The notes: generated by a model not told the origin, from the sequence alone. Positions 400 to 4,085 are shown, counted from the first letter of the stretch. The stretch: 64,000 nt of DNA from Kofleriaceae bacterium (GCA_965215005.1 CBDCCZ010000001.1:174497-238496); one strand, 5' to 3'. Made by a program: numbers and translations.

Positions 400-555
400 A
401 TGAAGACCCGCCGATGCAGTGCTTTCAAGAAGGTCTACTCGCCCGCCTTTGGCAAATACGTCAAACGCTGCCGCAGCTTCACACGGCGCGTGAAACCGAC
501 CGGGCGGCGTGTGTCCCGATGGACGCGGGCACGCCGCTTCGCTAGGCGAGGCTGA
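400..555 (+). CDS. Small Arg/Lys-rich protein, putative DNA-condensing virion core peptide
   Basis: ATG 400; 51 aa with 20 R+K and no D/E; stop lies 9 nt before the next ATG. Confidence 0.55.
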   Translation: MKTRRCSAFKKVYSPAFGKYVKRCRSFTRRVKPTGRRVSRWTRARRFARRG

Positions 556-564
556 GGACAAGCT

Positions 565-1137
565 ATGACCCGTGTACTCACTCTCGAAGGATTGCGCCGC
601 ATGAGACCTCTTCCCGTGGATTCCTATGATGCACTTGCCGGTCTCGATGGCGTTGTCGATCCGGAGGCCCTGCGCGCCGCTCTACCGAGCGCCCTCGGCG
701 GATTTGGCAGTGGCGCCATCATGCACTTGGCTCATCAGGTGGAGCAGGTGCAGCGCTTGGTCGACACGCCAGTCAAACGCATGGTCGCTGCCGGCGGCCT
801 TGGCATCCTCGGGGGCCTTGGAATTTGGCGATTGGACCGCGACGCGGCCATGGGCTGGGTTGGCGGCATGAGCGCGCAACTGGCCAGTGAGCTAATTGCG
901 CTGGTGATGCGCAAGCCAGGTGGCACCGCGGGCCTTGGCGCCTACCCGGATGAAGACGAGCTCGACGCCGAAGCGGCATTGATGGGCTCCTCGTATCTGG
1001 GCGCGCTTCCAGAAGAGCAAGAGCTTCTTGGCCTTGGCGATCCAGCCGTGGAGCGCCAGACGCCAACAGGCTTCGCCGATGCAGAGATCGAAGTCGACGA
1101 AGAGCTCGATACTTCCCTGGCTGGCTTTCTCACCTAA
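565..1137 (+). CDS. Gly-rich membrane-associated protein with acidic tail, putative virion protein
   Basis: GAGGA RBS; hydrophobic Gly-rich segments (MVAAGGLGILGGLGIW, AAMGWVGGM); acidic C-terminus; repeated LxG/GLG motifs. Confidence 0.7.
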   Translation: MTRVLTLEGLRRMRPLPVDSYDALAGLDGVVDPEALRAALPSALGGFGSGAIMHLAHQVEQVQRLVDTPVKRMVAAGGLGILGGLGIWRLDRDAAMGWVGGMSAQLASELIALVMRKPGGTAGLGAYPDEDELDAEAALMGSSYLGALPEEQELLGLGDPAVERQTPTGFADAEIEVDEELDTSLAGFLT

Positions 1138-1154
1138 CCCGCCTTCTCGTTTTT

Positions 1155-1220
1155 GGCGGCCAGCGAGGCACCCTCAACCACCGCGAGGCTTCCTCGCAAC
1201 CACTCACCTCGCTGGCCGCC
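1155..1220 (+). promoter_or_regulatory. Nested stem-loop in the leader of the putative capsid gene
   Basis: Perfect 14-bp inverted repeat GGCGGCCAGCGAGG (1155-1168) / CCTCGCTGGCCGCC (1207-1220) enclosing the hairpin GCGAGG-CTT-CCTCGC (1183-1197). Confidence 0.55.
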
Positions 1221-1265
1221 GCCATTTCCCCTCCGCAAGACGCCGCAGAGGCGCACCCGAGCCCC

Positions 1266-1946
1266 ATGAGCACGCAAACCCTCGTTCCCGTCAAAGGCGA
1301 GCCCGGCGTCTTCTTCAATAAGCTAACTGGCAAGAAGATCCACATTGTTGATTGGCGCGAAGATGACAAGTACGACACCGTCTTCTTGCCGCCTGGCCCG
1401 ATTCAGCCGGGCACGTCGCTGTACTTCTTCCGCGACTTGCAAGGCAAGAACCTCATCGACACCAACTTCTCCGCCCCGCGCAAGCTGCCAGCGGGCGAGG
1501 AGATGATTCTCAACCGCATCGGCGTGCAGATTCCGCTCGCCATCGGCAACGTCCTGATGACGCCGGGCGATATCAAGAAGGTCGCTGAGAACGGCTATCT
1601 CGCCTTCCGCATCAACCGCAAAGACGTGGCCGAAGGGCCGCTGTTGCGCTTTCCGAGCGGGTATGGGCTCTCTGGCTCCACCAACGTCGATAACGACGGC
1701 ACCTTGTCGATTGGCGTTCCGTCGACCGCCGCCGCCGCCAAGCTCGCGCGCGACCAGTACGTCAACTCCGACCACGACATGGACGGCGTCGTGACCTACT
1801 ACGATCGCGCTTGGATGCGTGGCCTGCAGGGTATGGGTGATCCCAATGACGACGTCGGCATCGCGCCATTCCCGCCGGTGCTCGAGCGCGGCGTCGCCAT
1901 TCGACTCGTCCTCCACGGTCTCATCAAAGCAGCTGCGACCAAATGA
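1266..1946 (+). CDS. Putative single jelly-roll major capsid protein (226 aa)
   Basis: Clean ORF with strong GC3 bias; beta-strand-like alternation; pattern YDT..FF..K..DTN...LP...I..IGV and terminal strand IRLVLHGL. The CDS is solid; the capsid role is inferred. Confidence 0.55.
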   Translation: MSTQTLVPVKGEPGVFFNKLTGKKIHIVDWREDDKYDTVFLPPGPIQPGTSLYFFRDLQGKNLIDTNFSAPRKLPAGEEMILNRIGVQIPLAIGNVLMTPGDIKKVAENGYLAFRINRKDVAEGPLLRFPSGYGLSGSTNVDNDGTLSIGVPSTAAAAKLARDQYVNSDHDMDGVVTYYDRAWMRGLQGMGDPNDDVGIAPFPPVLERGVAIRLVLHGLIKAAATK

Positions 1947-2413
1947 TGCGTGCAATCACAGGCGGGCCGCTCATGGCGCATTCGCGCGATGTGCTGGCCT
2001 TGCCACCGGAGCTCATGCGCATCGATCTGGTGAGCTTCGCCTTCGACATCGGCCCTCGTGGCCAAGTCACAGGCGACACCCAAGCAAGCCTGCATGCCGA
2101 CTTTGCCGCGGAGCTCTATGCGATCTCGGCCTTCGCAGAAGATCCGACAGCAGACCTGCCGCTGGCGCCATTTGTAACCATCAACCTGCGCGAAGATGGC
2201 CGCAACTTCGATCACTTCACCACGCCCATCGAGCTTGCGTACTTTCTTCGACCAGGCGCTCCGGCAGTCACCTTCCCCCGCGGCGCCTACGTCTTCCGTC
2301 CAGGCGCCCGCGTGCGCCTCGGCGTGCGGGTCCATCCTGAGTACATCGCGCGCACGAGTGTCCCCAAACGCTGGGGTGTGCTCTTGGCTCTCAACCTTTG
2401 GCGAAGTGAGTAG
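1943..2413 (+). CDS. Beta-rich protein, putative second/minor jelly-roll capsid or penton protein
   Basis: ATGA overlap with the upstream gene; 156 aa of short alternating hydrophobic strands (VTINLRE, YVFRPGARVRLGVRV, WGVLLAL). Confidence 0.5.
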   Translation: MMRAITGGPLMAHSRDVLALPPELMRIDLVSFAFDIGPRGQVTGDTQASLHADFAAELYAISAFAEDPTADLPLAPFVTINLREDGRNFDHFTTPIELAYFLRPGAPAVTFPRGAYVFRPGARVRLGVRVHPEYIARTSVPKRWGVLLALNLWRSE

Positions 2414-2415
2414 TC

Positions 2416-3783
2416 ATGCAAGTCATCGAGCTCGACTCGGAAGTAAGCCCGCCGGCGTTTGGTCTATCTGGCGATGAGCGCCTGGTATTCGAAGGTGGTC
2501 CAGTCCCCGTTCTCGAAGACGCCATGCTCGGTGACGCCAGCGATGCCGCCGCCGAAGAAGGCGACGCAGCGCAATCTACAAACATCGATCGACGCCGACG
2601 CCTCGAGCAGATCGTCAACCGTCGACGCCGCGCCATCGCCTCCGCCCGTGCCGAGCGCAAGGTGCTAGAAGCCCGCATCGCTGGCCTCGACCGACAGATC
2701 GTCTCCGAGCTGCGTCCCGCGCTCGAGCGCGCCAAGCGCCAAGGCAACCGCGACAAGATGCGCCGTCTCGACGACCGCATCCACCGCCTCGACCTCAACC
2801 GCGGCATCGTCGCCGCACGCGCCATTCGCTACGCCAAGACCGAGGGCCTCGGGCAAGTCCTCATCCGCAATGCCAGAACCCAACAGCAACTCCTAACGCT
2901 CATCCAACAAGCGCAGCGCACAGGCAAGACCAGTGCCGCGTCTACACTGCAGCGCGCCTTCAATCAGATCGCCGGCAAGACGCAACGCTACAAACGCCTC
3001 CGTCGCCACCAAGTGCACGATTGGAGAGAGAAGACCGCCGGATCACGCATCGCACTTGCGCGTATGCTGCGCGAGCAAGCTCAAGAGCGCCTCGCCCGCC
3101 TGGAAGATGCTGCCGGCCGCGGCAGCATCGGTCAACGCATCACTCGTCAAGCCGCCGAGCATCGCGTGCTCGTTACCAAGCTCAAAGCTGCCGAAGAGCG
3201 CGAACGAAGTCGCCTACAGCACCTCGCTGTTCGAGATGCCCAAGGCATGGCATCCATGCCGTTCTCCGAAGCCACCGCCTTGGCCGCTACCATGGAGCTC
3301 GAAGGCTTCGAAGGCATCTGGTCAAGCATCAAGCGCTACGCCAAGAAGACCGGCGGCGCCATCACCGCCCCCGGCCGCGCCGTCGGCGGCGCCGTCAAAG
3401 ACGCCGTCCGCCAAGTCGGCTCCGCCGCCAAACGCCTCGCCAAAGGCGCCGCCTGCGCCGCTGCATCCAACCCCGCCGTCCTCGCCGCCGCCGGAAGCGC
3501 CGCCGGCACCGTTCTCGGCGGCCCCGCCGGAACCATCGCCGGCGGCCTCGCCGCAAAAGCCGCCGGCGGCCTCCTCTCCGCCGCCTGTCCCCAACGATCA
3601 AACGCACCCGGTCCTCAACCGACATCCGGCACTGCCGCCATGCCCGTCTCTATGCAAACCGCGGCTTCAGGCATGCTCCAACCGCAGCCGCGCTCGATGA
3701 CGCCCATCCTCATCGGCGGCGGCCTCGCCACCGCCGGCATCCTCGCCGCCGTCGCCCTCAGCGCAAACCGACAAGACTCCTAG
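2416..3783 (+). CDS. Coiled-coil protein with amphipathic helix and C-terminal TM anchor, putative virion membrane/entry protein
   Basis: Acidic N-terminus, Arg-rich coiled coil, GIWSSIKRYAKK amphipathic helix, Gly/Ala zipper, C-terminal hydrophobic helix PILIGGGLATAGILAAVAL. Confidence 0.65.
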   Translation: MQVIELDSEVSPPAFGLSGDERLVFEGGPVPVLEDAMLGDASDAAAEEGDAAQSTNIDRRRRLEQIVNRRRRAIASARAERKVLEARIAGLDRQIVSELRPALERAKRQGNRDKMRRLDDRIHRLDLNRGIVAARAIRYAKTEGLGQVLIRNARTQQQLLTLIQQAQRTGKTSAASTLQRAFNQIAGKTQRYKRLRRHQVHDWREKTAGSRIALARMLREQAQERLARLEDAAGRGSIGQRITRQAAEHRVLVTKLKAAEERERSRLQHLAVRDAQGMASMPFSEATALAATMELEGFEGIWSSIKRYAKKTGGAITAPGRAVGGAVKDAVRQVGSAAKRLAKGAACAAASNPAVLAAAGSAAGTVLGGPAGTIAGGLAAKAAGGLLSAACPQRSNAPGPQPTSGTAAMPVSMQTAASGMLQPQPRSMTPILIGGGLATAGILAAVALSANRQDS

Positions 3784-3788
3784 CCCCA

Positions 3789-4085
3789 ATGACTCCAACC
3801 ACCGACCCCGACCTCATCCCCTACGTGCGCAAGCTCGAGCTCCTCCTGAGCCGCCCCGTCTGGAGCTGCCCCTCACTCCGCCGTCGGTTCCACGAACTCG
3901 ACACCGAGCTCCAAGGCTCCCTCACCAGAGCCCTCGCAACCCTCCTCCGCGACCAAGACATCGTCCGCTACGGCGCCCGCCTCATACCCATCAGCGGAGC
4001 CAACGCCTCAACTCCGCCCGCAGCATCACCACAGGCCGGTGACTCATCAGCCGCTCCAAAAGCGAGCTGGCAGAGCTGGGGCTGA
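3789..4085 (+). CDS. Small hypothetical protein (possible winged helix)
   Basis: ATG 5 nt after the upstream stop; same C-rich codon style; this is the 3' part of listed ORF 3021..4085. Confidence 0.5.
   Translation: MTPTTDPDLIPYVRKLELLLSRPVWSCPSLRRRFHELDTELQGSLTRALATLLRDQDIVRYGARLIPISGANASTPPAASPQAGDSSAAPKASWQSWG

Follow-up and report, generated by a model that had tools for sequence, protein, structure and literature searches.

A predicted pair of single-jelly-roll proteins in an integrated element of a myxobacterium: a candidate virion module closest in fold to that of SPV1

Only a handful of viruses, isolated from archaea and Thermus, are known to enclose double-stranded DNA (dsDNA) in a capsid made of two single-jelly-roll proteins, and these viruses are central to the debate on the origin of the jelly-roll virus realm. 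To our knowledge, few viruses of myxobacteria have been characterised. The closest described systems to the locus considered here are SPV1 (Portogloboviridae), whose host is an archaeon, and the Halopanivirales/Helvetiavirae, among them P23-77, IN93, HHIV-2, HCIV-1 and SH1. An FtsK-HerA-type packaging ATPase is given as a feature common to helvetiaviruses in one account (PMC8812541), and the genome sizes stated in the abstracts of the ICTV profiles are 16-19 kb for Simuloviridae and about 30 kb for Sphaerolipoviridae. The locus lies in a stretch of 64,000 nucleotides from a Kofleriaceae bacterium (GCA_965215005.1 CBDCCZ010000001.1:174497-238496), corresponding to C1:174497-238496 of a 6.2-Mb, 62-contig assembly and referred to below, at its full length, as the window. 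Near its left end, six tightly packed genes, all on the plus strand, occupy positions 400 to 4085. A preliminary description, made from the sequence alone, took this block for the morphogenesis genes of an integrated virus of the Halopanivirales kind; the resemblance in fold and the mobile nature of the element have held good, while membership of that group has not. The reading that we favour, and to which we give roughly even chances, is that the block is the virion module of a temperate, non-tailed virus lineage with two single-jelly-roll proteins, a lineage whose nearest counterpart in fold is SPV1 and which lies outside the Halopanivirales. With about the same balance of probability, the resemblance to SPV1 would extend to the lack of a packaging ATPase.

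The larger jelly-roll protein, p226 (226 amino acids, aa; positions 1266..1946, plus strand), is the candidate major capsid protein, and the smaller, p156 (156 aa; 1943..2413, plus strand), the candidate second major capsid protein; the start of the p156 gene overlaps the stop of the p226 gene by 4 nt (ATGA), as had been reported for what was then called a beta-rich pair. Homologues of p226 form 118 clusters, all unnamed, at 34-70% identity, and 62 of these 118 matches, picked to cover the identity range, were aligned (alignment A1); the AlphaFold model obtained from A1 is a beta sandwich with a mean pLDDT of 86.7. For p156 a word search gave three matches, and a set of 1.84 billion representatives yielded 37. 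The corresponding alignment A2 held 41 sequences, namely the query, two of the word-search matches, 32 of the 37 representatives and six translated from loci, with P0141 (701 aa), P0144 (1693 aa), P0154 (289 aa) and P0157 (99 aa) left out, and the model derived from it has a mean pLDDT of 90.1. p156 evolves faster than p226. Both proteins are predicted to be jelly rolls, as the preliminary description had expected, and for both the match that aligns over the greatest length is the SPV1 capsid protein, the longest-aligning matches being single-jelly-roll capsid proteins of SPV1 and Halopanivirales. In the Protein Data Bank (PDB), Foldseek matched p156 at E ≤ 0.001 to a single entry, the SPV1 capsid protein 6oj0_A (2.3e-4, TM 0.54/0.49); the capsid proteins of HCIV-1, HHIV-2 and SH1 come next, at E 1.5-3.6e-3. 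For p226 no Foldseek PDB match was obtained at E ≤ 0.001; at the same threshold there were 34 matches in BFVD, many of them to capsid proteins of circular single-stranded DNA viruses. The atlas clusters nearest to p226, like those nearest to a 541-aa protein described below, are unnamed and 88-100% viral by label, and the nearest named clusters to p226 are the PRD1 P2/P3 families, at a score of 0.76-0.77 that constitutes a lead only.

Capsid proteins are not the only folds to resemble p156. An Ena fibre subunit (Foldseek E 1.1e-3) and a nucleoplasmin-type core also match it, and nucleoplasmin-like HDT proteins tie on Z (8.0-8.3). Such matches could point to a cargo or accessory system carried by integrative elements and phages, in place of a virion: for example, either a secreted or surface-borne, pilus- or appendage-like assembly of Ena-like jelly rolls, or a pentameric, nucleoplasmin-like pair of chaperones for DNA or protein, processed in either case by the transglutaminase-like protease encoded nearby. 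The nucleoplasmin-like alignments extend over only 87-93 of the 156 residues, whereas the capsid proteins align over 119-134, and neither a signal peptide nor secretion genes were seen in the block.

The pairing of the two genes is the most constant property of the locus. A search with A1 returned two genome loci, four IMG/VR loci and 43 metagenome loci, and one with A3 returned three of the same four IMG/VR records. When hidden Markov models (HMMs) of the module proteins were applied to all open reading frames (ORFs) of 48 distinct loci (L041 being dropped as the same record as L010), a p156-family gene was found directly downstream of the p226-family gene at every one of the 34 testable loci. 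Upstream of the p226-family gene lay the family of p190, the second protein of the block, at 24 of 32 testable loci, the protease at 15 of 23, the 541-aa family at 10 of 17, and a recombinase, heading the block, at 9 of 14. Two p226-family genes stand in tandem in 5 of the 48 loci (L013, L052, L058, L060 and L061), giving three jelly-roll genes in a row, with the p156-family gene last. Contig names place the lineage in soils, sediments and fresh water. Among 401 genomes sampled from the host phylum the p226 family occurs in two, one of which is the window's own genome, and it occurs in none of six genomes of the host's own family; tblastn with p226 gave no match in 50,697 GenBank phage records or in 72,556 PLSDB plasmids, the latter result speaking against a non-virion accessory system. 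The presence of two copies in the genome and this sporadic distribution in the host phylum support the view that the block belongs to a mobile element, as had been proposed.

The block is not a self-contained unit of six genes, and extends to the left past the start of the window. A second copy of the region is present on contig C48 at about 94% nucleotide identity, and the shared repeat runs from C1:159188, where C48 ends, to window position 3925, a distance of 19.2 kb with two non-shared gaps; the six genes therefore lie at the right end of an element whose length is 19.2 kb or more. From left to right the module consists of a recombinase (293 aa), the 541-aa protein, a protease (213 aa), a cargo slot, and then p51, p190, p226, p156, p455 and p99. 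The recombinase gene, 2.9 kb upstream of the window start and co-oriented with the block, is assigned by profile to the Xer-like tyrosine recombinases, since both the catalytic domain (PF00589, E 2.9e-30) and the N-terminal SAM-like domain (PF02899, E 3.7e-7) were matched. In the 541-aa protein a small conserved domain at the N-terminus is followed by an extended low-complexity region rich in Q, M and P and then by a helical C-terminal domain. The 213-aa protein matches PF01841 above cut-off (E 4e-9 for the C1 copy and 1.4e-9 for the C48 copy; 6e-13 for its relatives), and its GDCDD, HIY and D-x-S motifs are invariant in five of five aligned homologues, so that the Cys-His-Asp triad is intact; profile match and catalytic residues together place it among the Transglut_core cysteine peptidases. 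The preliminary description had suggested that a protease and an integrase be sought to the left, and both are there, the integrase in the form of the Xer-like recombinase and of a 437-aa integrase-like gene beside a tRNA-Asp. Its further prediction of a packaging ATPase in this region failed, no enzyme of the FtsK/HerA/A32 type being found in the element or in four complete relatives.

Other ORFs upstream encode a PD-(D/E)XK exonuclease, RusA, a sigma-r4-like protein, a Bro-N antirepressor, a patatin, a ResIII helicase, ArdA, an SLT transglycosylase and small hydrophobic proteins, and farther left lie a second helicase, unassigned ORFs, an HTH_17 protein and the 437-aa integrase-like gene (PF00589 E 2.1e-5, below cut-off). 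ArdA and SLT transglycosylases are common in conjugative elements, and this, together with the lack of a packaging ATPase, is what the genetic context offers in favour of a non-virion system; against it, no conjugation ATPase or relaxase was found among the Pfam-scanned ORFs of the element, the PHROGs scan being limited to the 20 kb adjoining the window. Among the 48 ORFs called in the element, the unassigned ones longer than 300 aa number five, of 808, 541, 455 and (two) 344-345 aa, and these few large ORFs leave no room for the head and tail of a tailed phage. The 808-aa upstream ORF had no match among PDB sequences. One 345-aa ORF (L004:14461-15498, minus strand), which is Arg-rich and overlaps a 235-aa ORF on the opposite strand, was set aside as probably spurious.

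The block is also found, as the preliminary description had hoped of a synteny search in IMG/VR, in four virus genomes of 80,211 to 101,942 bp (G001-G004) that have direct terminal repeats, in G003 an exact repeat of 78 bp, and a CheckV completeness of 100%. Six-frame searches with positive controls gave no match in any of the four to Terminase_6N, TerL_ATPase, Phage_portal or Phage_capsid, nor to FtsK_SpoIIIE or Pox_A32. For G003, 58 proteins were compared with Pfam and 48 with PHROGs, in addition to a set of module proteins that included 13 from this genome; the scan revealed a family A DNA polymerase, PrimPol-VapE, exonucleases, Dam methylase, amidase and M23, so that the scanned proteins include replication and lysis genes and no tailed-phage structural gene. 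G003 and G004 have only 14 of 133 proteins in common, mostly those of this block, and the myxobacterial element shares with them the block, a small hydrophobic protein and, weakly, an exonuclease (E 2e-4). What these complete virus-like genomes, otherwise unrelated, have in common is mainly the block. This fits a hallmark module better than it fits cargo, and we consider the surface-assembly and chaperone explanations quite unlikely. Rather, the occurrence of a mobile, virus-associated block containing an obligate jelly-roll pair, preceded by a low-complexity protein and a cysteine protease, argues for a capsid morphogenesis module.

Genomes of 80-102 kb with terminal repeats are, on the other hand, typical of tailed phages, and a module in which a large protein, a small protease, an acidic protein and the main structural protein follow one another recalls the head module of such phages. 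The relatives might accordingly be a lineage of tailed phages so divergent that profiles have missed their terminase, portal and HK97 capsid, with p226 and p156 serving as decoration, cement, turret or receptor-binding proteins; the order of the block would then mirror portal - prohead protease - scaffold - capsid. Profile searches can indeed miss very divergent forms of these three proteins, the atlas clusters are labelled 'Uroviricota' where the phylum is known, and in relatives the pair is followed by a long protein that has peptidoglycan-binding domains, as tape-measure and internal virion proteins do. At L010, moreover, a protein encoded 9 kb downstream of the block matches a 'head decoration' PHROG (E 1e-25) and has a YadA-like, fibre-like stalk. 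Yet none of the four complete genomes matches any of the four terminase, portal and HK97 families, and neither the scanned gene set of G003 nor 61 neighbour proteins from 10 further loci include a tailed-phage structural gene. The structural proteins here are predicted jelly rolls and not of the HK97 fold; the protease is transglutaminase-like and of no recognised prohead protease family; and the 541-aa family, half of it low-complexity, has no portal-like features. The pair is also the best-conserved part of the block, which would be unusual for accessory proteins, and the myxobacterial element, as noted, has too few large unassigned ORFs to encode a head and a tail. A tailed-phage origin therefore appears unlikely.

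The comparison with described single-jelly-roll viruses can be made more precise. The SPV1-like Portogloboviridae are marked by a single-jelly-roll capsid protein whose barrel stands vertically and by having no packaging ATPase. The likeness to SPV1 consists in the predicted fold of the two proteins and in the failure to find a packaging ATPase here; SPV1 differs in having an archaeal and not a bacterial host, its capsid proteins have no sequence similarity to p226 or p156, and the complete relatives of the present element are of 80-102 kb. The Halopanivirales/Helvetiavirae, for which two single-jelly-roll major capsid proteins from neighbouring genes and a lipid membrane inside the shell are typical, differ in possessing a packaging ATPase, found neither here nor in any of the four relatives; here the larger jelly-roll protein is encoded first; the relatives far exceed the sizes cited above for Simuloviridae and Sphaerolipoviridae; and p226 and p156 have no Pfam, PHROGs or PDB-sequence homology to known capsid proteins. 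Membership of the Halopanivirales fails on the lack of a packaging ATPase and of capsid sequence homology.

Several findings weigh against the interpretation of the block as an SPV1-like virion module. Nothing here shows particles. Searches with p226, A1 and A2 against all PDB sequences (phmmer and profile) gave a best E of 0.067, and comparison of the A1 and A2 profiles gave a probability of 0.6%, that is, no detectable homology between p226 and p156. Pfam and PHROGs scans and a Walker A search, which located the motif among the element's 48 ORFs in the two ResIII helicases only, found no FtsK/HerA/A32 packaging ATPase among the scanned ORFs of the element, and few membrane proteins are predicted in the block. 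The relatives of 80-102 kb are at least three times the size of any known dsDNA virus with single-jelly-roll capsid proteins, and the decoration-like protein at L010 has already been mentioned. The ends of the element were not found, no exact repeat of the tRNA-Asp of at least 12 nt being present in C1:143,700-200,000. Finally, either copy in the genome may be defective, because the window copy holds a cargo gene and the other is cut by insertion sequences of the IS66 family.

A more specific proposal, advanced tentatively and at somewhat less than even chances, would assign p226 and p156, as the two major capsid proteins, to a lineage of bacterial dsDNA viruses that is widespread but so far undescribed, that resembles SPV1 and Helvetiavirae in fold, and whose genomes range from ~20-35 kb, in an integrated form in myxobacteria, to 100 kb. 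This lineage would have its own morphogenesis module, devoid of packaging ATPase and terminase, in which the Xer-like recombinase is joined by a long protein of low complexity, serving as ruler or scaffold, and by a transglutaminase-like protease for maturation. No description of the p226/p156 pair or of the block was found in the literature, which was represented mostly by abstracts, and one could exist elsewhere. In the proposed mechanism, the capsid lattice would be made jointly by p226 and p156, in the manner of the single-jelly-roll pair in SPV1-like and Halopanivirales viruses; the 541-aa protein would serve as scaffold or size ruler; and the transglutaminase-like protease would mature or release virion proteins. 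The small basic peptide p51 would condense DNA, p455 and the small hydrophobic upstream proteins would provide anchorage to a membrane, and the recombinase of the module might make unit-length circles. Since neither a packaging ATPase nor a terminase was found, the genome would probably be enclosed during assembly, as has been proposed for SPV1.

If this is correct, these would be the largest known viruses with single-jelly-roll shells, having dsDNA genomes of up to 100 kb; the two-single-jelly-roll capsid type would gain a wider range of hosts and sizes, and its ATPase-less, 'ancestral' form would be placed in Bacteria. With this lineage, Bacteria would offer a parallel to SPV1 in which genome enclosure independent of an ATPase could be tested, a temperate non-tailed virus of myxobacteria would be a useful tool, and it would follow that entire groups of large virus genomes escape the virus-hallmark searches now in use. 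Confirmation by particles would make this a new lineage at the rank of family or higher.

The remaining four genes of the block are those for p51 (51 aa; 400..555), p190 (190 aa; 565..1137), p455 (455 aa; 2416..3783) and p99 (3789..4085, at the block's right edge; 98 aa counted from ATG), all on the plus strand. The intervals between the six ORFs are, in order, 9, 128, -4, 2 and 5 nt, and all six frames are open in the window copy. Pfam and PHROGs gave no match at E ≤ 0.01 for any of the six proteins. Differences between the C1 and C48 copies fall mostly at third codon positions: 7 of 8 in p51, 27 of 32 in p190, 31 of 33 in p156, 44 of 58 in codons 1-326 of p455, 9 of 12 in the 93 nt of p99 common to both copies, and 36 of 39 in the recombinase. 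The p226 gene was left out of this count on account of gaps in the nucleotide alignment; its protein is 98.7% identical between the two copies. This codon-position pattern indicates that the ORFs, which were correctly described as compact and co-oriented, are real genes that have diverged under purifying selection.

p51 consists of 39% K+R, has no D or E residues, and may be a DNA-binding or DNA-condensing virion peptide; its basic character had been recognised at the outset. In related loci only a short gap separates the protease and p190 genes, and no counterpart of p51 was noticed there. p190 had been called a Gly-rich membrane protein. It is Gly-rich (14%), acidic (15% D+E) and Gly/Ala-rich overall, but no 19-residue window reaches a Kyte-Doolittle value of 1.6, and the membrane label is unsupported by this simple hydropathy test because there is no strong hydrophobic span; a role as scaffold or minor virion protein is conceivable. 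p455 is basic, helical/coiled-coil, with an Ala/Gly-rich tail, and agrees with its original characterisation as a coiled-coil and transmembrane protein: its N-terminal part has weak lamin/coiled-coil matches only, in a search against PDB sequences, and a single hydrophobic, transmembrane-like span lies near the C-terminus at residues 428-450. It is weakly homologous to proteins of the same block in G003 (720 aa, E 3e-7) and G004 (796 aa, E 5e-9), and could be a membrane-anchored virion or assembly protein. Only the first half of p99 is present in the C48 copy.

The last stretch common to the two copies (3833..3925; blastn 87% identity over 93 nt) lies within p99, and the copies diverge thereafter, which places the right end of the element at or beyond 3925; the GC content falls from 0.68 to 0.58 after about position 4000. 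On the left, genes continue to the 437-aa integrase-like gene, which, with an HTH_17 excisionase-like gene, adjoins tRNA-Val and tRNA-Asp (L007 3496-3677 = C1:143495-143676) downstream of lon, and on this basis the element may span about 35 kb, starting at the tRNA-Asp. The tRNA site is likely to be an integration hot spot, and it is possible that the left end of the element lies there; comparison of the left junction with the right side gave no convincing short match. The exonuclease region (C1:158907-160130) has yet another homologue in the genome, a more divergent one with 78% identity at C14:15075-16256, suggesting that the genome contains a further related element that lacks the jelly-roll pair.

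The two copies differ between protease and p51. Here the window copy alone carries a RibD_C-family gene (C1:173940-174619, minus strand; dihydrofolate-reductase-like), a 226-aa ORF (Pfam RibD_C E 1.9e-12) of which the 5' part occupies window positions 1..123 and which runs left past the window start; the segment from -696 to 392 is absent from the C48 copy, where an unrelated 94-aa ORF occupies the corresponding position, and the site is thus a variable cargo slot. In the C48 copy two IS66-family units (TnpA-like, TnpB and DDE transposase ORFs; L005, C48:14000-33999, at 3326-8199) cut the p455 homologue at codon 326, with loss of what lay between that point and the opening codons of the p99 homologue. 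The cargo gene inside the block and the IS66 units in the sister copy, together with the failure to find an att repeat, could be taken as signs of decay or domestication in the window copy, or of its dependence, as a satellite, on an 80-100 kb helper; it would then have kept part of a virion block and no longer form particles of its own. The 139-, 945-, 324-, 259- and 395-aa genes that follow the pair in G003 likewise have no homologues in the window element; a protein of roughly 139 aa at this place in relatives is a candidate penton protein. Against decay stand the strong purifying selection in every module gene compared between copies and the open frames of the window copy; the element has SLT, small hydrophobic, recombination and regulation genes of its own, and unrelated genes may supply the missing functions. 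We judge it distinctly unlikely that the window copy is a remnant or satellite.

The stretch is present in two sequencing runs of one study, with no RNA run listed that contains it, while its words are almost absent from two other runs that carry the same species label. For run X1, word depth summed over contigs was 14-23 across the element (1-3335) and about 4-5 across the flank (4003-12673), a depth that includes the second copy and possibly relatives and is not a copy number. Alignment of run contigs to window positions 1-20000 gave no joint that would define an excised or empty site.

The host assignment follows from the Lon protease, which is 82-83% identical to that of Haliangium and 77-81% identical to those in records labelled Kofleriaceae or Myxococcales, and these relatives indicate a Haliangium/Kofleria-like myxobacterium, the host group having been supposed from the start; Lon is also close to that in two metagenome-assembled genome records labelled Proteobacteria (84%) or Deltaproteobacteria (81%).

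To the right of the block, positions 4740-15729 hold a 1481-aa ORF with no Pfam match and then a 1973-aa RHS protein comprising FG-GAP, RHS repeats and a C-terminal Tox-REase-7 nuclease toxin domain. The 199-aa ORF that follows has a weak, sub-threshold HEAT_2 match (E 5.7e-5) and possibly encodes an immunity protein; pieces of the RHS locus (12884-14802) recur on contigs C37 and C46 at 91-93% identity. An IS3-type insertion sequence (16582-17770; an HTH_Tnp_1 ORF and an rve integrase ORF) recurs at 99% identity at C1:19119-20359 and on C5, with less similar copies elsewhere. It is followed at 18660-26628 by a type I restriction-modification operon encoding HsdM (898 aa), HsdS (420 aa) and HsdR (1120 aa), with a gene for a YgjP-like metallopeptidase after it.

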